Shown one piece after another: positions 1-32,525 of a stretch of DNA of 32,525 nucleotides. The notes below the pieces were generated by a model that did not search any database, was not told the DNA's origin, and saw nothing but the letters and a program-made list of their open reading frames with translations. Position numbers and translations under genes: made by a program. This DNA is from a virus (lineage: Duplodnaviria; Heunggongvirae; Uroviricota; Caudoviricetes): IMG/VR virus record IMGVR_UViG_651053023_000008; one strand, 5' to 3'. Position 1 is the first letter of the stretch; each line of letters starts with the position of its first letter.

Positions 1-1698
1 TTAAGGTGTGGGTTGTGCCTCTTTGGTTGAGGGTTGCGTCGTTGCTGACTTAACGGTCGGACGCGTCGCCGGAACATTGTCACACGGTTGCTCTTTCGGG
101 CAGATCAAATCCAGCATTTTCAGCGTCACGCCATTGGTCCAGCCAAAGCCATCCTGTAATGGATATTCGCCACCGCCGCCCTCCGTTCCGGTGGTGCTGA
201 CATCATATTTTTCCACCAGCTTTTTCTCCCGGTCATAGGTGTGCTGAACATTGGTCAGGAAGTGCCAGCTAATGTCCATCGCCACCTCTTTTTGCCCGTA
301 GTTTTGTAATCCTTCTGTCGCGACCCACTGTAACGGTGCCCAGCCATTTGGCGCATCCCATTGTTGCCCACTTTTCACCGACGTGGTGTTCAGGCCGCCG
401 GGTTGCAGCAGATGTGTTTTCGTCGCCGTCGCCATTTTGTTGGCGCGATCTTTCGCTGCCGCATTGACGTACAGCGGGAACAGGGCGGCCGCGGTTAACT
501 GATTGCGCACTTTATGACTTTTCAGGTCGTAATCGGCATACCAGCCTTGTTGATCGTTCCACAGGTATTTTTCGATCCCTTTTTGACGGGCATTTGCCAG
601 CGTTTCGTACTGGTTTGCCATCGCGTTATCTCCGGCAGCTTTGCTGGCGCGGGCGAGGATTTTTTCCATTTTAAACATCAGGCTGTTCAGATCGACCGGT
701 ACGATGCTGGTGGTGCGTAAGGTATTTAACTGCTGCGGGTTGTCCATCCAGCGCGAGCTGAAATCCCAGCCAGACGCAGCGGCAGAGCGCAGGTCGCGGT
801 AAATTTCAGTGGCAGGTCGATTCGGATTGCTTTTGGCGGTGGCAATATCTTCCACCCATGACTCTGGTCGTGGCGTATCGCGATCGTCCCAGTAGCGGTT
901 GAGAAGGGTACCATCCTGAAGTTTGACAACGCGTTTTTCCTGTTGTCCGGCTTGCAGGTTTTCAACACCGTCCATCCAGTAAGCATATTCTTTTTGCATT
1001 TGCGGCAGGTATTGCTTCAACGCGGCATCGCCTTCATGCTGCGCCAGTAACTCTACCATCAGGGCAAAGAAGGGCGGTTGCGAGCGGCTTAAATAGTAAC
1101 TGCGGTTGCCGTTGGGAATATGACCGTAAGTGTCTATTTCATGAGCAAAATTGGCCACCATATTCGCGACTTTATCCCAGTGACCGCTTTCGGCAAGTCC
1201 TAACATGGTGAAGTAACTGTCCCAGTAATATACCTCGCGAAAGCGTCCGCCCGGCACGACATAAGGTTCCGGCAGCGGTAACAGAGAATCCCATTTTTCG
1301 GTGTTTTCGGTAGAACGCGTTAATACCGGCCAAAGTCCGTCAATATGTTCGCGCAGTGACTGCCCCTCTGGCGGAACATATTTCTCGCCTTCTTTCGGCA
1401 GGGTGAAATTGACGTTAACGAAATGGCGCAGATCAAATCCGCTCTGGTTTTGCTGCATCCGATAATCAGCAAGGATCATCAGCGGATCGCTGTTCGGCAC
1501 GGCATCGGCAAAGGTTTTTTGGTCCGGAAAAAGTTTGGCGTTTTGCACATCATTAAACAGCGGCCCTAATAAAATATCAGGCGGCTGTGGTGTTACCGGT
1601 GTTTCTTCTGCCTGCACCGATAGCGCAGCGAAACACAAAAAGATACAGGCTGGAATTAACGCCATTTTTTGCGGGCGAGAAGGTGCGGGGGATTTCAT
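1..1698 (-). CDS. treA: periplasmic trehalase TreA (host gene)
   Basis: ORF 1..1701 (566 aa) with signal peptide ([20 protein letters not shown]) and family-37 trehalase length and sequence as I recall E. coli TreA. The first ORF codon is TTG per the sequence line; the second Met (ATG ending at 1698) is the likely start. Confidence 0.9.
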
Positions 1699-1826
1699 CA
1701 ATCATTCTCCTTTGGCGAAACCGAATAAAACGGTATTCAAGTATCAGAAAACCTTAGTTCAGGATCGCACTAGCTGCATGATCGAAATCTCATTCTGCGA
1801 ACTGTCAGGCATTTTAGAAAAGGGAA

Positions 1827-2165: not shown

Positions 2166-2690
2166 TTATACAGCTTTCTTTACATCGTTTTCTCTTACAG
2201 GGAAATTATGTTCTTTGCCTTCATACTGAGACAAAATCTCTCTCACTTTTTCCGGTGGTAATGCCTGAAGAGTTTGCAGGGTTTTCTGTTGCTCCACAGT
2301 AATCCCTAATGCCTCTAATGCCTTATCTTTACTGACAATTGTAGGCATAAGTCCTTTAATCCCTGCTACACGAATGATCTCCACAGCTGCGGCCTGCTCA
2401 TCTGGTGTTAAGAAGCTCATTGCATAAATTAGCCTCTCATCAACTGTATGGGCGATTGATGTATGCACTGGTTTATCAGAAAGTGAGGCTCCTTTAATGG
2501 CCCTGCGTGTTTCTTCTGGCAGACTGTTGATGTGATACTCATAAGCGACACCTTTCCCACCGTGACGCTGACGTTTTACCCAATCTTCCGCCACAGCTTT
2601 CCTGGTAATGTTAGTCGCCAACTTTGGTACACCAGGCATCCCTTCCAGCTCTTTCGCATTAAACCATTCTTTGATTTCAAAAGACATCAT
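2166..2690 (-). CDS. c: Mu-type repressor (c-like)
   Basis: 174-aa ORF divergent from ner at the position of the Mu repressor. Its N-terminus ([34 protein letters not shown]) parallels the transposase N-terminus ([34 protein letters not shown]). Confidence 0.8.
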   Translation of the reverse strand: MMSFEIKEWFNAKELEGMPGVPKLATNITRKAVAEDWVKRQRHGGKGVAYEYHINSLPEETRRAIKGASLSDKPVHTSIAHTVDERLIYAMSFLTPDEQAAAVEIIRVAGIKGLMPTIVSKDKALEALGITVEQQKTLQTLQALPPEKVREILSQYEGKEHNFPVRENDVKKAV

Positions 2691-2875
2691 TTAAAATCCT
2701 AGTGATTTCAATAGAGACAAAATAAATTCATATAAAAATCATGCCGTTATATAAAATCATGGCAAATCATTTCAAATCACTATTGATTTGGAAGTGATTC
2801 CACACTACATTGCACGATATGCCGTGAGCTACTTTATAGCGTAGCTCACGGGGGAATCTGAAAGGATTACATGAA
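2691..2875. promoter_or_regulatory. operator and divergent promoter region between c and ner; candidate early promoter -35 TTGATT (2783-2788) and -10 TACATT (2806-2811)
   Basis: AT-rich intergenic region with many AAATCA/TGATTT half-site repeats; hexamers with 17-bp spacing upstream of ner. Confidence 0.5.
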
Positions 2876-3097
2876 ATGCATATGAATAAAAGAACTAACC
2901 GCCAAGATTGGCACAGAGCTGACATCGTTGCAGAGCTACGAAAACGCAATATGTCACTAGCTGAATTGGGAAGATCTAATCATCTTTCGTCTTCAACATT
3001 AAAAAATGCTTTGGATAAGAGATATCCGAAAGCGGAGAAAATCATTGCAGATGCACTGGGAATGACACCGCAAGATATTTGGCCGTCTCGATACTAG
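2876..3097 (+). CDS. ner: Ner-like DNA-binding regulator
   Basis: 73-aa ORF directly before the transposase with Ner-family motifs ([14 protein letters not shown]...LAELGR......STLKNAL...[24 protein letters not shown]). Confidence 0.85.
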
Positions 3098-3104
3098 GTG
3101 CGCT

Positions 3105-5093
3105 ATGAAAGAATGGTATACAGCAAAAGAGTTGCTCGGTTTGGCAGGTTTACCAAAGCAAGCCACTAACATTACACGTAAGGCACAAAGAGAAGGCTGG
3201 GAGTTCAGGCAGGTTGCAGGGACTAAAGGTGTATCATTTGAATTCAATATCAAATCATTCCCTGTCGCATTACGTGCTGAAATTCTGTTGCAACAAGGGA
3301 GAATTGAAACCAGTCAGGGGTATTTTGAAATCGCCCGCCCCACGCTGGAAGCCCATGATTATGATCGTGAGGCACTGTGGAGCAAATGGGATAACGCCAG
3401 CGATTCCCAGCGCAGACTTGCTGAAAAATGGTTGCCTGCGGTTCAGGCTGCAGACGAAATGCTGAACCAGGGGATTTCAACGAAAACGGCATTTGCGACC
3501 GTTGCAGGACATTACCAGGTCAGCGCATCCACTTTGCGAGACAAATATTACCAGGTACAGAAGTTTGCGAAGCCTGACTGGGCGGCTGCGCTTGTTGATG
3601 GACGTGGTGCATCCCGTCGCAACGTTCACAAAAGTGAATTTGACGAGGATGCCTGGCAGTTTCTGATTGCAGATTATCTGCGACCAGAAAAACCCGCCTT
3701 TCGCAAATGTTATGAGCGTCTGGAACTGGCAGCCCGCGAGCATGGCTGGAGTATTCCCTCCCGTGCCACGGCCTTTCGCCGGATTCAGCAACTGGACGAG
3801 GCAATGGTTGTTGCCTGCCGTGAAGGTGAACATGCACTGATGCATCTGATACCGGCACAGCAGCGAACTGTGGAACACCTGGACGCCATGCAGTGGATCA
3901 ACGGCGACGGTTATCTGCATAACGTCTTTGTACGCTGGTTTAACGGTGATGTGATCCGCCCGAAAACATGGTTCTGGCAGGATGTGAAAACCCGAAAAAT
4001 TCTGGGCTGGCGCTGCGATGTGAGCGAGAACATTGATTCAATTCGCCTCTCGTTCATGGATGTGGTGACACGCTACGGCATCCCGGAAGATTTTCACATC
4101 ACCATTGATAACACCCGTGGGGCAGCGAATAAATGGCTGACGGGGGGCGCGCCCAATCGTTACCGCTTTAAGGTGAAAGAGGACGATCCAAAGGGACTGT
4201 TTTTACTGATGGGCGCGAAAATGCACTGGACAAGCGTTGTTGCCGGTAAAGGCTGGGGCCAGGCAAAACCTGTTGAACGTGCTTTCGGTGTTGGTGGGCT
4301 TGAGGAATACGTTGATAAGCATCCGGCACTGGCTGGCGCATATACGGGGCCAAATCCGCAGGCAAAACCTGATAACTATGGCGACCGTGCTGTTGATGCA
4401 GAGCTGTTTCTGAAAACCCTTGCTGAAGGTGTGGCGATGTTCAATGCCAGAACAGGCCGTGAAACAGAAATGTGCGGGGGCAAACTCTCGTTTGATGATG
4501 TTTTCGAGCGTGAATACGCCAGAACGATTGTGCGTAAGCCAACCGAAGAACAAAAACGGATGCTGTTACTGCCTGCCGAAGCGGTGAACGTTTCACGCAA
4601 AGGCGAGTTTACGCTTAAAGTTGGCGGCTCCCTTAAAGGCGCGAAAAACGTTTATTACAACATGGCGTTAATGAATGCAGGCGTGAAAAAAGTTGTGGTC
4701 AGGTTTGATCCGCAGCAGCTACACAGCACAGTTTATTGCTACACCCTGGACGGTCGGTTTATCTGTGAAGCGGAATGTCTGGCACCTGTTGCATTTAATG
4801 ATGCTGCGGCAGGCCGTGAATATCGCCGCCGCCAGAAACAACTGAAATCTGCAACTAAAGCAGCCATTAAGGCGCAGAAACAAATGGACGCGCTGGAAGT
4901 TGCTGAACTGCTGCCGCAGATAGCCGAACCAGCAGCACCAGAATCAAGGGTTGTTGGTATTTTCCGGCCTGTGGGTAACACAGTACGGGTTAAATATCGC
5001 ACCCCCGATGATAAATACGAACCCGCTCGTGATGAATATCTGAATCAGTCACTGGATATTCTGGAACAGAAAAGACGTAAAAAAGCCATTTAA
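3105..5093 (+). CDS. A: Mu-type DDE transposase A
   Basis: 662 aa; N-terminal end and enhancer-binding domain, central catalytic core, C-terminal region, at the Mu A position; sequence closely matches MuA as I recall it. Confidence 0.95.
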
Positions 5094-20792: not shown

Positions 20793-21288
20793 ATGGCTGA
20801 AATGGAATTTGAACTGAAACACGGGCTTCTGACCGGCAAAGGCACGGCAGATGAAACCCTGCATAAAACCGTGAAGCTGCGCGAACTGACCGCCAGTGAT
20901 GTGATTGATGCACAACTGGCCGCAGAACGCGTCGTCATGGGCGGGAACGGAAAGGCGGTGGCCTACTGCTCTGAAGTGCTGATGGGGCTGGAGATGATGC
21001 GCCGTCAGGTTGCGGCCATCGGCAGCATTCCCGGCCCGCTGGACATGAAACAGCTGCGAATGCTCCACCCGGCAGACCTTGAGCTTATCAGCACGAAAGC
21101 CGCTGCGCTGGATGACATGCTTGAGGAGGTGGCAACGCGGGGGCGAACTGATGCCGCTGGCGGCGGCACTGATGAACCTGCTGGTTAACCTGTCCCAGCG
21201 ATTCAGCATTCAGTACCTGGAACAGCTGCCCCTGCGGCAGCTGTTCCGCCTGATAAAGCAACTGGAGAAACAGCATGGCAACAGGTAA
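20793..21288 (+). CDS. tail assembly chaperone with a putative programmed frameshift (short product 20793-21188; extended product to 21288)
   Basis: Two overlapping frames; the second frame has no independent ribosome-binding site and ends at the tape-measure start. G5 run at 21139-21143. Confidence 0.6.
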
Positions 21289-24396: not shown

Positions 24397-25467
24397 TGGA
24401 ATCCGTGATTCTTACCGTTGACGGCAAATTGTGGGAAGGCTGGACGGAAATGTCCGTCAGCCGTTCCCTGAAGGCGATTGCCGGTGAGTTTGATCTCAGT
24501 GTGACAACCCGCTGGTCAGCGGCGGCACCGCGCGTGATACGTGAGGGGCAACCCTGCACGGTCAGGCTGGGTGCGGATACCGTGCTGACAGGGTATATCG
24601 ATGATTTTATCCCCAGCTATGACGCAGATAACGTGGAGATTCGCGTCATGGGGCGCGACAAAAACCGGCGACCTGGTGGACTGCTCTGTGGTGCATTCAT
24701 CCGGGAAATGGAAAGGCGTGCGGCTGGAACAGGTAGCGGCTGATGTCTGCCGCCCGTTCGGGATAGCCGTCATCACGGAAACCCCGACCGGGGAGGCGTT
24801 TGCGTCCGTTGTTCTGGAACAGGGTGAAACGGGCTTTGAACTGCTCGACCGGCTGGCAAAACAGCGCGGCGTTCTGCTGACGTCTGACGGCGCAGGTAAC
24901 CTGATTATCACCCGCGCCTCTTCCGTTCGCGCGGGCGTGTCACTGGTGCTGGGGAAAAATATCCTCGCCGCCCGTGGGCGCTTCAGCTGGCGGGAGCGTA
25001 ACAGCCAGTACATCATCAAGGGCACCACCAGTGCCGGTGGCAAACTGTGGGACAGCCAGCCTGCCTCGATGGTGGGTGGTCGCCAGTACATCACCGAAGA
25101 CCCGGAAATTAACCGTTACCGCCCGCGCATTCTGGTCAATGAAGACAGCCTGACCGTGGGCGGGGCCAGCATTCGCGGGGAATGGTACAAAGCCCGGATG
25201 CTGGGGGAATCCCGCACGACGGAAATCACGGTGGCAGGCTGGCGCGAACAGGGCGACAGCGGCCCGCTGTGGCAGACCAACCGCCTTGTCGATATCGACG
25301 ACAGCATTCAGAACCTGAAAACCACCTGGCTGATATCCGGGGTGACCTGGACGGATGGCGCACAGGGGCGGATGACGGTTCTGGCGCTGGTTCCGCCTGA
25401 ATCACTGGATATGCCGGAAATGAAAGCGAAGACGAAGAAAACAAAGGCGGTGGCCACATGGGATTAA
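24396..25467 (+). pseudogene. baseplate hub protein (Mu Q-like) with a +1 frameshift in an A5 run (24660-24664)
   Basis: ORFs 24396..24743 and 24601..25467 join into one 357-aa product (..VMGRDKTGDLVDCSVV..) if one A is removed. Confidence 0.6.
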
Positions 25468-25994
25468 ACGCAATTGCCCGCCGTCTGCGGCTGCTGGTTG
25501 ACCGTGCCGTTGTGCGCATGGTGTCTGACAGTCTGGAGCGGCAGAACCTGCAAATCCAGACGCTGGCTGATGCCACCGACGACGACGTGGAACGCTTCCA
25601 GAACTACGGGTTTACTTCCGTTCCGCCGGAAGGTTCTGAAGCCATCGTGCTGGCCGTGGGCGGACGGCGTGACGGGCTGGTTGCCATCGCGGTGGAGGAC
25701 AAGCGATGTCGCCCGAAAGGCCTGTCCCCCGGTGATGTCCGGCTGTATCACCAGGACGGTAAATCGCATATCACGTTAAAGAAAGGCGGAATTATTGAAA
25801 TCACAGGAGAACAATTAAACGTTTCAGGGAAAACGGTAAATCTCACCGCCGACGAATTGCTGAATATTATCGGTAAACAAATGAAATTCGTCGGTCCCTG
25901 TGAATTTACTGCAGATGCCACAATCAACGGTAAATCTTTCATCAAACACATTCATAAGGACGGCGACAATGAGAAGACATCACCGCCCATATGA
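25458..25994 (+). CDS. baseplate spike protein (gpV-like)
   Basis: 178 aa, overlapping the end of the Q-like gene; position in baseplate cluster. Confidence 0.55.
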   Translation: MGLNAIARRLRLLVDRAVVRMVSDSLERQNLQIQTLADATDDDVERFQNYGFTSVPPEGSEAIVLAVGGRRDGLVAIAVEDKRCRPKGLSPGDVRLYHQDGKSHITLKKGGIIEITGEQLNVSGKTVNLTADELLNIIGKQMKFVGPCEFTADATINGKSFIKHIHKDGDNEKTSPPI

Positions 25995-26443
25995 CGACCG
26001 GAATCCGCTGGAATAATACTCTCTCACGGGGTGACATCACCGTCACCCATAACGGCCTCTCACTGGATGAGGGGCTGGTCACTCAGGTTCTTATCTGCCT
26101 TTTCACTGATGCCCGTGCTGATGACGATGATGTCATTCCAGATGGTTCCGGCGACCCGCGCGGCTGGCCGGGCGACACGTACAGCGATTTTTCGTGGGGT
26201 TCCCGCCTGTGGCTGCTTGAGCGCGAAAAACTGACGGAAGATGTCCGCCTGCGCGTGGAGGATTACGCGCGACTGTCCATGCAACCGCTGCTGCGGGCCG
26301 GTTACGCCCGTAACGCCACCGTCACGGCCAGAATCATCGTCCCTGACCGTATTGCCTTTCAGGTGGTGTTAACCCGCCCGGACAAAACCACGCTCACAAT
26401 CGAAATCACCCGCCGATGGGAGGCCACCATTAATGCCGTATGA
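25991..26443 (+). CDS. baseplate protein (Mu gp46-like)
   Basis: 150 aa, translationally coupled between the spike and J-like genes. Confidence 0.55.
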   Translation: MTTGIRWNNTLSRGDITVTHNGLSLDEGLVTQVLICLFTDARADDDDVIPDGSGDPRGWPGDTYSDFSWGSRLWLLEREKLTEDVRLRVEDYARLSMQPLLRAGYARNATVTARIIVPDRIAFQVVLTRPDKTTLTIEITRRWEATINAV

Positions 26444-27510
26444 AATCCCCACGCTGGGCAAACTGATTGCCGACGGCGAAAAAGATATTGCGTATGAACT
26501 CGGCCTGCAAAAGCTGCCGCCTGTCAGTGTTGAGCAGGCGCTGAATGTGTCATTCAGCAGTCAGGTCCGGGATTTATACGACCATCAGAGCTGGATCAAG
26601 GACCAGATAATTCCGTCCACTACGTCTGATGATGAAACCATTATCAAAAACAGCAACGTATGAAGGGGTTATCCGCAAGCAGGCCACCTTTGCCAGCGGG
26701 CCGGTGACCTTCACCAGTCAGTCCCCCATTCCGGCAGAAACCCGGATGCAGTCCGACACGAATCAGGTGTATCAGGTACTCACATCCGGCGAGGTACAGG
26801 ACGGCGAGGTCACTGTCATCGTGCAGGCTGAAGAAGCCGGTGTGGCGGGCAATCTTGCTGCCGGTGCCGTGCTGACCCTGTTATCCCCGCTACCCGGAAC
26901 GGGCAGCACAGGCGCGGTGACTGAAAGTGGCATCACCGGTGGCGCAGACATCGAATCCATCGCAGAGCTGCTGGACCGTCTGCTGTATGTGCGCCGCAAT
27001 CCCCCGGTGGGCGGTGCACTGCATGATTACGTCATCTGGGCGCGTGAAGTGCCGGGTGTCAGCCGCGCGTGGGCATGGGATGCGTGGCACGGCCCCGGCA
27101 CGGTCGGGCTGGCATGGCTTTATGATGACCGTGAAGACATTATCCCCACACGGGACGACCTGAAGACAATGGAGCAGTATCTGTTCTGCCACAAACACCC
27201 TGCCACCGGCGTGATGGTGGGCAAACCGGGCGGCATCGAGGTCTGGCCGGTGCAGGTCAGGCTGAAGAAGCTCGACCTGTCCATCCGTCTGACACCGGAC
27301 AGCCAGGCGAACAGGAACGCCGTCCGGGCAAACCTGACCGCATTGCAGAAAACGCTGGCCCCCGGTCAGATGCTGCCGGTGTCCTCGCTGCGCACGGCCA
27401 TCGGTATGACGTCCGGTATCACGGATTACTTCCTCAACATCGGGGAGGACACCACCAGTGATGTGGATGAGCTTATCACCATCGGGGAGGTGACATGGCT
27501 CACAGCGTGA
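26433..27510 (+). pseudogene. baseplate J-like protein (Mu gp47-like) with a +1 frameshift in an A5 run (26646-26650)
   Basis: ORFs 26433..26663 and 26629..27510 join into one 359-aa product (..DDETIIKTATYEGVIRKQATFASG..) if one A is removed. Confidence 0.6.
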
Positions 27511-28079
27511 CGGAATGGCTGACCGCACTGCAACAGGTCATGCCACGGGGTAAGGCATGGCCGCGTGATAACGACGCGGATTTAAACCGTTTTTTAAGGG
27601 CGCTTGCAGAGCGTTTAACCCGCGTTGAATACGACGCCTCGCGTCTGCATGTGGAGATGCGACCGGAAACCACGCTCCAGTTGCTGCCGGAGTGGGAGCA
27701 ATATCTGGCGCTGCCGGAATGCGGAATTGCCGCCACCACAACGGAAGCCCGCCGCCGGGCCGTGGTGGAGAAATACCGCCGCAAAGGCGGGCTGGCCACC
27801 TGGCAGATTGAAGCCGCTGCGGCGGCGCTGGGATTCACTATTAAGGTGACGGCCGTTCTGCCGCACCACTGCCTGCGTGACTGCATGTACCCGCTACATC
27901 CGGCGCGGTATCGCTGGCTGCTGAAAGTGGAAGTCCCGGACAAAGATGCCGGGCGGTTTACCTGTATTGATGACGTCATGACGCCATTAATCAGCGAACG
28001 GACCCGCGAGCTGGAATGCCTGCTGAAGCATTACCGGCTGGCGGGCACGGAATATGAATATTATTACACCGGAGAATAA
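27495..28079 (+). CDS. tail protein (Mu gp48-like)
   Basis: 194 aa following the J-like gene. Confidence 0.55.
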   Translation: MAHSVTEWLTALQQVMPRGKAWPRDNDADLNRFLRALAERLTRVEYDASRLHVEMRPETTLQLLPEWEQYLALPECGIAATTTEARRRAVVEKYRRKGGLATWQIEAAAAALGFTIKVTAVLPHHCLRDCMYPLHPARYRWLLKVEVPDKDAGRFTCIDDVMTPLISERTRELECLLKHYRLAGTEYEYYYTGE

Positions 28080-28082
28080 TTT

Positions 28083-28970
28083 ATGTTTCATGTGGATAAT
28101 CCGACGGGTGTGCCAGTGATGCCACCTGTCGCGGCTGAATTAAGCAAAACAACGCTTTATTTTACCGAAGGCGGGAACGGTATTCCGCCCACTTATCCGG
28201 GGCCGGACTGGTTTAATATTATTCAGTCTGAACTGCTGGAAATTCTCCGGCAGGCAAATATCAAACCGGATAAAAACACAACCGACCAGATTATGACAGC
28301 GCTGAAAAAAACTGTTTATTACGAACAGTGGTTCAGCCGGAGCTATTGCCGGATTAACCGGTCAGAATAATACGTTCCCGTATTTTACGGCGAAGACACA
28401 ATGGCATTAACGCCGCTCAGTGCTTTTGTGCGCGGTATTCTCGGGAAAAACACAGCCGGTGAAATTATCGACGCGCTTTTATTACGTGACACGGTAAATA
28501 AAGCTAATAGTGCTGTACCGAATACCCGCAGGGTCAACGGCATGGCTCTGTCTTCGGATATCACCATCAGCAACATCAGCGGCAACGCCGGAACGGCAAC
28601 CCGACTTCAGACGGCCCGCAGGATTAACAATGTGCTGTTTGATGGCAGCCGCGATATCACGATTTCTGCGGGAATGTCACAAACTGAAGGTGACAACCGT
28701 TACCAGCAAAAAAACACGGCGTCAAAAGCCGGTAATGGCTGGTTTAAGGACACGTCCACCGGGGTGATTATTCAGTGGGGGTATCTCGGCAATGCCAGTG
28801 CCGGGCTGACGTTTCCGATATCATTTCCGTCAGCATGTACCAGCATCACTATTACCAACGCATACACCCGTGCTGATTACTCTATTTCCCTGAAATCGTT
28901 ATCAGCAGCAGGTGCGACATTCAACAGCGAGAATAACGGCGTTATGTACTGGACAGCGATAGGGTATTAA
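28083..28970 (+). pseudogene. tail fibre gene (S-like) interrupted by two compensating indels (extra A in the A7 run 28305-28311; likely missing G at 28389-28390)
   Basis: Conserved fibre N-terminus (MFHVDNPTGVPVMPPVAAELSKTTLYFTEGGNGIPP). The fibre motif GLTGQNNTFPYFT is encoded in frame +1 between the two ORFs; the C-terminal ORF 28401..28970 continues with MALTPLSAFVRGILGK. Confidence 0.55.
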
Positions 28971-29410
28971 TGATGACTATTTATTTCAGCCCATCAACAA
29001 ACGGTTTTTATCATTCTGGCCTTCAGGGTGATTATGAAAATGCGGGAACGTGGCCGAATGATTTACAGGAAATCACGGATGAAGAATATCAGAGACTGTT
29101 ACAGGGCCAGACTGACGGTTTTATTATTGTATCTGGCGAAAACGGATATCCGGTATTAAAAGAACCCGTAATTAACTGGCAGCAGAAAGCGGAAACGCAA
29201 CGCCAGCACCTGCTGGCTGAAGCAAGGGAAATCACCTCCGACTGGAAAACCGAGCTGGAGCTGGGCACCATCAGCGACGATGATAAAGCCCGTCTTACGC
29301 AGTGGATGGCATATATCAAAGCGGTAAAGGCACTGGATTTAAGCACCGTTACTGACGAAGACTCCTTTTATTCCATCAACTGGCCGGAGCGTCCCGATGC
29401 CGCAGCTTAA
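28970..29410 (+). CDS. tail fibre assembly chaperone (Tfa-like)
   Basis: 146 aa immediately after the fibre gene; Tfa-like sequence. Confidence 0.7.
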   Translation: MMTIYFSPSTNGFYHSGLQGDYENAGTWPNDLQEITDEEYQRLLQGQTDGFIIVSGENGYPVLKEPVINWQQKAETQRQHLLAEAREITSDWKTELELGTISDDDKARLTQWMAYIKAVKALDLSTVTDEDSFYSINWPERPDAAA

Positions 29411-31004
29411 AGGTGTGATTAAAACGCCCACGGGAGAACCGCTGGGCGGCGCAACCATTACATTGACCTCCCTGCACAACCGCGCAGGGATTCTGAAAAG
29501 TGTTTTCAGCCATGTCACCACACAGAACGGGGAATATGACTTCCCCGTTCTGCCGGGTGTGTACAGCGTTCGCCTGACACAAAGCACACAGCGCCTTTCA
29601 GAAATCGGTGTCATCCGCGTTTATGAAGATTCAGCGGACGGTTCGTTGAATGATTTTCTGGGTGCAACCGATATTGACCTGCGCCCGGAAGCCCTGAAGA
29701 AATTCGAAGAGCTGGCGCAACAGGCGCAGCAAAGCGCAGAAGCCGCAGCGGAAAGCGAGCGACAGGCCGGGCAACATGTCGCTGATGCGCAGAAGATAAA
29801 GAAAGACTGTCAGACGCTGGCGGATAACGTACAGCAGAACGCAGAAGCCGTAGCGGCCAGCAAACAGCACGTTGAACAGCTGGCCTCAGAAGTTGAGCTG
29901 AACGCCGGGCAGGTGCAGCAGGGCGTGCAGAATGTTACTGATGCGGTAAAAAAGGCGCAGCAGGCAGCAAAGGATTCTGCTGACAGTGCCACAGATTCGA
30001 AAAACAGTGCTGACAATGCGGCACTGAGCGAACAGAACGCACAAAAACACGCGCAGAAAGCTGAACAACACGAGCAGCAGACTAAACAATATGCGCAGGA
30101 TGCAGCGACCGCCGCAGAATCAGCAGAGAACGCCAAAGGCGAAATTGACGAAATTCTGGAAGGTGGCTATCTCAAGATAAAAAACAACTTTCAGGAAATT
30201 GTTGATGCTGGCCCGTCAGCACTGGCTCAGGCCCAATGGAATTTACAGATTTCCGGGGTGAAAAATAAACAGGTAATTGCCACCCCTTATACATGGCCAT
30301 CCAGAACTGAGTATGAACAAAGGGTGCATCTGCCACTCGCCGGGGCTTACGGATTTGGCTACACATTTGAAGACCAAAGCCAGGGGCGAATAAATTTTAA
30401 TGAGGGCTATACGGCGTCGTGGTGGTCACAGTGGGCGAAACCTGGTCGTTATTACGTCAGCGCCAGTGATAAAGAATACCTCGCACCTGAAGGAGAAAGG
30501 TGGGGGATTGTTGATTTGCTGTGGCTTAATGGCAGCGGATATAACGATGCTTCGAAGGTTCTGAAGATACTGGCTTTTTACGACTCAGACGGGCACTTAC
30601 ACATAGGCAAGCGCGTTGGTCAGAGCGACTGGTCAATAAGCTGGCGCAAGCTGGCATCGCTCTCTGATGTCAGGGCCATGCTGTATTCATATATTTATAA
30701 TAATTACAACAGAGAATGGCGAGACCCGGAACTGGGAGGTTTAATTCTGGCGTCATACCAGGGAACCGCAGACGGCGACACAAATATAAAAGTATCCCGT
30801 GGTCAGACTTATCCCGGCTCGCGACTCGCTCCTGTGGCGATAGAATGCCAGTTCACCCCATCCGGCACGTATGCTGCAACACCGCGATTCTACATTACCG
30901 GCTGCAAGAGCAAATCACTCCCCGGAACTTATATTTCATTGTCTGGCGCGCCAACAACATACAGCGACCAGGCATTTGTTGCGCTATTCATGAGGATTGT
31001 ATGA
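29397..31004 (+). CDS. side tail fibre protein (lambda Stf-like N-terminus, coiled-coil shaft, C-terminal receptor-binding region)
   Basis: 535 aa; N-terminus parallels lambda Stf (..TITL......VYSV.L......IRVYEDS.DGSLNDFL); long Ala/Gln/Glu-rich helical shaft; AT-richer 3' third. Confidence 0.75.
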   Translation: MPQLKGVIKTPTGEPLGGATITLTSLHNRAGILKSVFSHVTTQNGEYDFPVLPGVYSVRLTQSTQRLSEIGVIRVYEDSADGSLNDFLGATDIDLRPEALKKFEELAQQAQQSAEAAAESERQAGQHVADAQKIKKDCQTLADNVQQNAEAVAASKQHVEQLASEVELNAGQVQQGVQNVTDAVKKAQQAAKDSADSATDSKNSADNAALSEQNAQKHAQKAEQHEQQTKQYAQDAATAAESAENAKGEIDEILEGGYLKIKNNFQEIVDAGPSALAQAQWNLQISGVKNKQVIATPYTWPSRTEYEQRVHLPLAGAYGFGYTFEDQSQGRINFNEGYTASWWSQWAKPGRYYVSASDKEYLAPEGERWGIVDLLWLNGSGYNDASKVLKILAFYDSDGHLHIGKRVGQSDWSISWRKLASLSDVRAMLYSYIYNNYNREWRDPELGGLILASYQGTADGDTNIKVSRGQTYPGSRLAPVAIECQFTPSGTYAATPRFYITGCKSKSLPGTYISLSGAPTTYSDQAFVALFMRIV

Positions 31005-31570
31005 TGCAGATTAAAGAAATCACCAGCCCCCGTTATACCGAATCCGGTGCGATTGACTGCGACGTTCTGTTTGAGGAAATGGAAGCCCCTGTTCCCTACA
31101 CTGCCACGCCGGACGATACAGCGAAAACCGGTCAGCAAATCTGGCAGGAACTGCAAAGCGGAAAATGGGGTGAAATAACCCCGTTTGCCGTCACGCCGGA
31201 ACTTATCGCAGCGGCGAAGGATGCCAAAAAACGGGAGATTGAGGCATGGCGCACAGAACAGGAGGCGCAGCCATTCACGTTCGAATGGAACGGTCGTACC
31301 TGGAATGCTGGTCCCGATTCGATGGCTCGCATTGCGCCCGTGGCAATGGCCGCAAAAGTGGCAGGTGCACGGGCAACGCTGGGGTGGGGGGATGCAGCAA
31401 ACAGCCTTGTCACCATGACAATGGCGCAGCTTCAGGAGCTGGCAGCAACAATGGCGCAGGCGCAAACCGAGCGCAATACTGTGATTTATCGTCGTCAGCG
31501 TGAGATGAAAGAGCAGCTTTCCCTGTTGACCACACTGAACGAAATAAGAGCATTCACACCCGGCGATTAA
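31001..31570 (+). CDS. tail fibre assembly protein or chaperone
   Basis: 189 aa; ATG overlaps the fibre stop. Confidence 0.55.
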   Translation: MMQIKEITSPRYTESGAIDCDVLFEEMEAPVPYTATPDDTAKTGQQIWQELQSGKWGEITPFAVTPELIAAAKDAKKREIEAWRTEQEAQPFTFEWNGRTWNAGPDSMARIAPVAMAAKVAGARATLGWGDAANSLVTMTMAQLQELAATMAQAQTERNTVIYRRQREMKEQLSLLTTLNEIRAFTPGD

Positions 31571-31693
31571 ATAATCATTTTGTATAGTTTATGACGATCG
31601 ATAACATCATATCGATCGTCGGTTTGCATCATATGTGATTAAATACCCCCAGCCCTCCGGGCGGTCATGTCTGGTTATTACACAGGGGGAATC
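31571..31693 (+). promoter_or_regulatory. com and mom promoter region with Dam GATC sites (31596-31599, 31614-31617) inside 7-bp inverted repeats
   Basis: GATCGAT ... ATCGATC arrangement directly upstream of com, consistent with the methylation-sensitive upstream region of the Mu mom operon. Confidence 0.55.
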
Positions 31694-31879
31694 ATGGACT
31701 CTGTTCGCTGTAAAAACTGCAATAAATTACTGTTTAAAGGAGGTTTTAAGCATATAGAAATTAAATGCCCTCGCTGTAAACGTTACATTGTCATATCGAA
31801 TGCCAAAGAGCATCCCACGGAGCTGTATTGTGGGAAAAGAGAAGAAATCACGCATTCTGACAAAACCCTGCGTTATTGA
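31694..31879 (+). CDS. com: Com zinc-finger translational activator of mom
   Basis: 61 aa from ATG 31694 (AGGGGGA ribosome-binding site); CKNC...x16...CPRC zinc finger; overlaps the mom start. Confidence 0.85.
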
Positions 31880-32525
31880 GTATGAAGGTCGTATTGTCGG
31901 CTATGGTTCAAAGGAGCTACGTGTTGAAACCATATCCTGCTGGCTGGCCCGCACAATCATTCAGACAAAACACTATTCCCGCCGTTTTGTGAATAACTCC
32001 TACCTGCATCTTGGCGTATTCAGCGGACGTGATCTGGTTGGCGTTCTTCAGTGGGGATATGCCCTTAACCCCAACTCAGGGCGTCGGGTCGTGCTTGAAA
32101 CGGATAACCGGGGCTATATGGAACTGAACCGCATGTGGCTACACGACGACATGCCCCGCAACTCTGAATCACGGGCTATCAGCTACGCGCTGAAAGTTAT
32201 CAGGTTACTGTATCCGTCAGTTGAGTGGGTTCAGTCTTTTGCAGACGAACGCTGCGGACGTGCTGGCGTGGTATATCAGGCGTCGAATTTTGATTTTATT
32301 GGTAGCCATGAAAGCACGTTCTACGAGCTGGACGGCGAGTGGTATCACGAGATAGCGATGAACGCGATTAAGCGCGGAGGGCAACGAGGCGAGTATTTGC
32401 GGGCTAATAAGGAGCGGGCCGTGGTACACAAATTTAATCAGTATCGCTACATCAGGTTCCTGAACAAGCGCGCAAAAAAGCGCCTAAACACCAAGCTATT
32501 CAGGATTCAGCCATACCCGAAGTGA
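31800..32525 (+). CDS. mom: Mom DNA modification protein
   Basis: ORF overlapping the 3' end of com and ending at the window edge; sequence matches Mu Mom as I recall it. Start uncertain (ATG 31800 or GTG 31830). Confidence 0.85.

Follow-up and report, generated by a model that had tools for sequence, protein, structure and literature searches.

The closest described counterpart of the element analysed here is the Ner operator of phage D108. In work by Tolias & DuBow (EMBO J 1985), Kukolj et al. (EMBO J 1989) and Benevides et al. (Biochemistry 1994), D108 Ner reportedly protects an operator of ~50-60 bp in which two perfect 11-bp inverted repeats have 8 bp between them. The protein is said to be a monomer that assembles on operator DNA, as announced in the title of Kukolj et al. 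1989, 'DNA-directed oligomerization of the monomeric Ner repressor...'. Transcription of c, the gene of the lysogenic repressor, is the second target of Ner in Mu and D108. A functional parallel is lambda Cro at OR3, which is likewise a small helix-turn-helix (HTH) protein encoded by the first lytic gene and lowers the early and repressor promoters. Cro is a dimer and has its operators in common with CI, whereas Ner is monomeric and has an operator separate from those of c, and the two protein families are unrelated in sequence. A further relative is EnrR, which resembles Ner in being an HTH_35 protein of the Ner family that is monomeric and paired on a palindrome; in the crystal structures (PDB 7F9H/7F9I) two copies are packed side by side on palindromic DNA (PMC9023278).

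The DNA analysed here, called the window throughout, is a stretch of 32,525 nucleotides that includes the left end of a Mu-like prophage of Escherichia coli. A sequence-only reading had pointed to a perfect 11-bp inverted repeat with an 8-nt spacer at 2822-2851, in the predicted early leader just upstream of ner, and had offered two explanations, an operator for the Ner-like protein or a 5' hairpin in the early transcript. Our analysis makes it very probable that the phage's own Ner, a counterpart of Cro that serves Mu-like transposable phages as repressor in the lytic phase, has its operator in this palindrome. The features of the region are as follows.

1-1701, minus strand: gene of a host trehalase-like protein, adjoining the prophage
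2166-2690, minus strand: c repressor gene, 174 aa, Pfam HTH_Tnp_Mu_1, 172/174 residues (99%) identical to D108 c
2672-2793, no strand: seven AAATCA/TGATTT hexamers, likely c-repressor operators, unlike the Ner palindrome in sequence
2783-2788, plus strand: predicted -35 hexamer of the early promoter Pe, TTGATT, from a loose promoter scan, overlapped by a palindrome at 2770-2793
2806-2811, plus strand: predicted -10 hexamer of Pe, TACATT, from the same loose scan, with a 17-nt spacer from the -35 hexamer
2822-2832, no strand: left half-site of the putative Ner operator, CCGTGAGCTAC, whose inner GCTAC (2828-2832) is invariant in 7/7 lineages
2833-2840, no strand: 8-nt spacer, TTTATAGC, invariant in length and free in sequence across lineages
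2841-2851, no strand: right half-site, GTAGCTCACGG, whose inner GTAGCT (2841-2846) is invariant
2876-3097, plus strand: ner, 73 aa, Pfam HTH_35 (E = 1.2e-28), expected to bind the palindrome

The palindrome between c and ner

A repeat search returned two arms (2822-2832 and 2841-2851) of 11 nt each that are 100% complementary and lie 8 nt apart, reproducing the coordinates and complementarity of the sequence-only reading. The palindrome sits between the divergent genes c (2166-2690, minus strand) and ner (2876-3097, plus strand), 24 nt before the ner ATG at 2876 and 10 nt past the predicted -10 hexamer, so that its earlier placement in the early leader directly 5' of ner was accurate. To set the chance level for inverted repeats, the 32.5-kb window was shuffled 200 times under a first-order Markov model. 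Perfect inverted repeats with 11-nt arms and a spacer of 0-20 nt occurred at a mean of 0.24 per shuffled window, and ~0.001 are expected by chance within the 185-bp c-ner intergenic region; the repeat described by the sequence-only reading is thus far from chance. The window has a single copy of the core of this repeat, AGCTAC-N8-GTAGCT, where 0.01 would be expected.

These values bear on the reading of the element as a chance palindrome or an intrinsic terminator. The window contains three perfect 11-nt inverted repeats besides 2822-2851, which favours chance; the figure of ~0.001 for the intergenic region and the conservation of the element across genera argue against it. A terminator is excluded since neither strand has a T-run after the stem, where the plus strand reads GGGGGAATCT and the minus strand CATATCGTGC, and a terminator scan did not call the palindrome. 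We therefore assign next to no probability to this pair of explanations.

A perfect inverted repeat at 31593-31620, GACGATCGATA-acatca-TATCGATCGTC, has 11-nt arms with GATC in each. A small ORF (31667-31879) follows ~50 nt downstream of it, and the com/mom homology begins shortly after the repeat; by analogy with the site upstream of Mu mom, it may be a Dam-methylation-sensitive control site. Two more, at 21219-21247 (GGAACAGCTGCC...) and 29523-29552 (CAGAACGGGGAA...), are perfect inverted repeats of 11-12 nt without a T-run, the latter falling inside an ORF at 29397-31004.

The predicted Pe matches the consensus at only 8/12 positions, which is why a stricter promoter scan did not call it. 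Phage SfMu keeps both hexamers, while the spacer between them has diverged. From the -10 hexamer at 2806-2811 transcription would start at ~2817-2819, a position predicted from the hexamers, which would place the palindrome at about +4 to +34. When a leftward repressor promoter was sought on the right-hand side of the palindrome, the top candidates on the minus strand fell within the ner coding sequence, where conservation is uninformative.

The AAATCA/TGATTT hexamer is found 46 times in the whole window against 21.6 expected, and its cluster between the c start and the -35 hexamer of Pe probably represents the c-repressor operators O1/O2. Within this cluster, TTTCAAATCA-ctat-TGATTTGGAA at 2770-2793 is an AAATCA/TGATTT palindrome, which in three relatives (L006, L007 and L010) forms a perfect 11-nt inverted repeat. 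Nowhere does the window match the strict IHF consensus WATCAANNNNTTR.

The position of the 2822-2851 element in the c-ner control region would also suit binding by c, the lysogenic repressor, at a counterpart of Mu O3; the third repressor operator of Mu overlaps its Ner region. Against such a c operator, the expected hexamer is confined to 2672-2789; it is absent from 2790-2875, the Ner palindrome included. Moreover, the palindrome and the recognition helix of Ner occur together in lineages that have otherwise diverged in their upstream control regions, and D108 is reported to have only two c operators. A c operator at this site is highly improbable, and an operator for Ner remains the preferred reading.

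Identity with D108 and differences from Mu and EnrR

The prophage begins at ~1827, where its left end reads TGTATTGATTCACTTGAAGTACG. Over the first 1281 bp of the prophage, identity is 98.8% with phage D108 and 85.8% with SfMu, and the transposase genes A and B come after ner. From 2797 to past the ner start the sequence is base-for-base that of D108, which includes the 30-bp element and ~70 bp around it. The palindrome corresponds exactly to D108 996-1025, and SfMu shares both arms unchanged. Ner is identical to D108 Ner at 73/73 residues (100%) and matches the solved structures of Mu Ner (1NEQ/1NER) and EnrR (7F9H; E = 1.5e-22); its gene is preceded by a Shine-Dalgarno sequence, AGGA, at 2863-2866.

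Thus, the locus has the same 30 bp, the same flanks, the same Ner and the same position between c and ner as the D108 Ner operator, with no difference within the element. From the published descriptions and the full identity of site and protein, we take the 11/8/11 palindrome to be the footprinted D108 Ner operator. The element is, in other words, an already known one, the D108 Ner operator within a D108-immunity prophage, and an operator for the Ner-like protein, one of the two explanations first offered, is the best-supported reading.

The sequence-only reading had also suggested a comparison with the leaders of D108 and Mu, and the two give different pictures: identity with D108, and in Mu a different, imperfect palindrome at the equivalent place. 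Mu is alike in that its Ner-binding region (~1023-1064) also lies between Pe and ner and is served by a protein of the same family in the same role; in the Mu record, the promoters annotated at 991-1028 and 1063-1101 are described as 'part of the Ner binding region'. The Mu palindrome, which is situated between these two promoters, differs in having 18-nt arms that are 78% complementary and a 6-nt spacer. This fits with Mu Ner being only 53% identical to the Ner of this prophage, its recognition helix reading TLANALER where TLKNALDK is found here. Mu Ner and D108 Ner are not known to cross-react. An architecture common to Mu with a different specificity is as expected for heteroimmune relatives.

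EnrR differs from the site described here in its targets: it acts as a genome-wide H-NS antagonist on AT-rich palindromes with little or no spacer (PMC9023278), whereas the prophage presents a single GC-containing palindrome with a fixed 8-bp spacer. Expression of EnrR in E. coli BL21 led to lysis and the release of 'Mu D108-like' phage (PMC9023278), which hints at cross-talk between Ner-family proteins and D108-type switches.

Beyond its left end the prophage is a mosaic. While the left end is D108-like (98.8%), the late region departs from D108, and megablast against the phage collection found no Mu-like phage matching ~6.7 kb of it (25000-31700); com/mom (31704-32525) is the only late part that matches Mu, D108 and SfMu, at ~89%. 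In E. coli STEC383 (L075) the c-ner region is 100% identical over 185 bp, but it is located inside potE. The different insertion sites, adjoining the trehalase gene here and in potE in STEC383, fit random transposition of the Mu type.

Conservation across Ner lineages

We searched the viral and genome collections with the Ner protein and found relatives down to ~45% identity. Seven lineages were aligned, with Ner identities of 61-100% and the recognition helix TLKNALDK in all of them: the window together with D108; SfMu; L015/L057, from an Enterobacteriaceae isolate; L041; L058, from Parashewanella; L026/L061, from Pantoea; and L025. The 30-bp element aligns without gaps and at the same place in all seven, from E. 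coli to Pantoea and Parashewanella. Columns 7-11 (GCTAC) and 20-25 (GTAGCT) are invariant throughout, and the spacer is 8 nt long in 7/7 lineages with a sequence that differs in every one; the flanks diverge too. The outer 3-4 arm positions are variable, with pairing lost in 3/7 lineages. In each of the seven, the element is preceded by a sigma-70-like promoter whose end lies 9-12 nt before it, and the distance from the end of the element to the ner start is 22-32 nt in the six lineages measured (L058 excluded).

Among 5426 complete E. coli genomes the region is present in 44 (~0.8%). Of these 44 genomes, 39 show at least 99% identity over the 61 bp that surround the palindrome; the whole 185-bp intergenic region reaches at least 99% in only two of them and mostly shows 95-99% identity. 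A scan of viral contigs for TGAGCTAC-N8-GTAGCTCA returned 13 sites, nine of them on contigs with a D108-type ner. The other four, which have no ner or c match and one of which resembles a tRNA D-arm, were taken as chance occurrences.

Five further relatives with Ner proteins 68-74% identical (L017, L021, L022, L024 and L060) were left out of the seven-lineage alignment. They carry a related site, G[CG]TAC-N8-CTA[GC]C, together with an extra upstream (G)TAGCTAG, a sequence arrangement that points to at least three half-sites and to a change in specificity. A copy from Sodalis (L059) has a decayed site beside a ner pseudogene.

The comparative data also bear on the second explanation of the sequence-only reading, a 5' RNA hairpin. 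As a rival to the operator, the element would act mainly as RNA, either as a 5'-terminal stem-loop that shields the early transcript from 5'-end-dependent decay (an ompA-type stabiliser) or as a modulator of ner translation. In its favour, the computed folding energy of the 30-nt RNA is -19.4 kcal/mol (z = -5.85 versus shuffles), the hairpin is the dominant structure when folded in the context of the leader, and its stem would start ~4 nt from the 5' end predicted from Pe (2817-2819). Folding potential is present in 7/7 lineages (-9.6 to -21.5 kcal/mol), 87% of the alignment cells are paired, and 5/11 pairs have changed on both sides, so that on this count the comparative signatures of an operator and of an RNA stem overlap.

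The pattern of conservation fits an RNA role less well. Covariation would be expected of a purely structural stem, but the five inner pairs are invariant in sequence, and compensatory change along the full length of the stem was not found across the seven lineages. The outer 3-4 pairs are broken in up to three lineages, and an 11-bp stem is thus not kept. The spacer is fixed at 8 nt although a loop would need no fixed length, and the stem leaves the Shine-Dalgarno sequence (2863-2866) free, at a distance of 11 nt. An Rfam search of 2600-3150 gave no meaningful match. In addition, any palindromic operator located 3' of +1 yields such a hairpin automatically. An element that works mainly as RNA is therefore quite unlikely; the hairpin may have a secondary role in the early transcript. 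The invariant core and fixed spacing, combined with a free spacer and free outer arms, fit sequence-specific recognition by a protein better than an RNA stem.

Proposed mechanism and significance

By analogy with Mu and D108 and from the literature on these phages, we infer that Ner binds the palindrome and represses both Pe and the repressor promoter Pc. After infection or induction Pe would fire, with ner as the first gene transcribed, and Ner, a small helix-turn-helix protein that is monomeric in solution, would accumulate. It would then fill the two inverted 11-bp half-sites (core GCTAC/GTAGC at a fixed 8-bp spacing), which cover approximately +4 to +34 relative to the predicted Pe start. 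The adjacent placement of EnrR monomers on a palindrome, in structures that match Ner, supports this recognition of half-sites by HTH monomers. Bound Ner would impede RNA polymerase at Pe, resulting in autoregulation and in less transposase A/B, and it would also hinder leftward transcription towards c, keeping the phage lytic.

It is conceivable, if doubtful, that the sequence has a double duty, serving as the Ner operator in DNA and, as a stem-loop in RNA, shielding the early mRNA (and the c mRNA too, if Pc starts rightward of the element) from 5'-end-dependent decay. If so, one sequence would set both the synthesis and the lifetime of the transcripts of the switch.

As a discovery the element carries little weight because the D108 site was characterised in the 1980s and 1990s. 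RefSeq labels c a 'MerR family transcriptional regulator' and ner only a 'helix-turn-helix domain-containing protein'. For annotation, the site marks the lysis/lysogeny switch of a Mu-like prophage with D108 immunity. The modest addition made here is that the core conserved across genera is narrowed to GCTAC-N8-GTAGCT, which could aid the annotation of Ner operators in uncharacterised Mu-like prophages.
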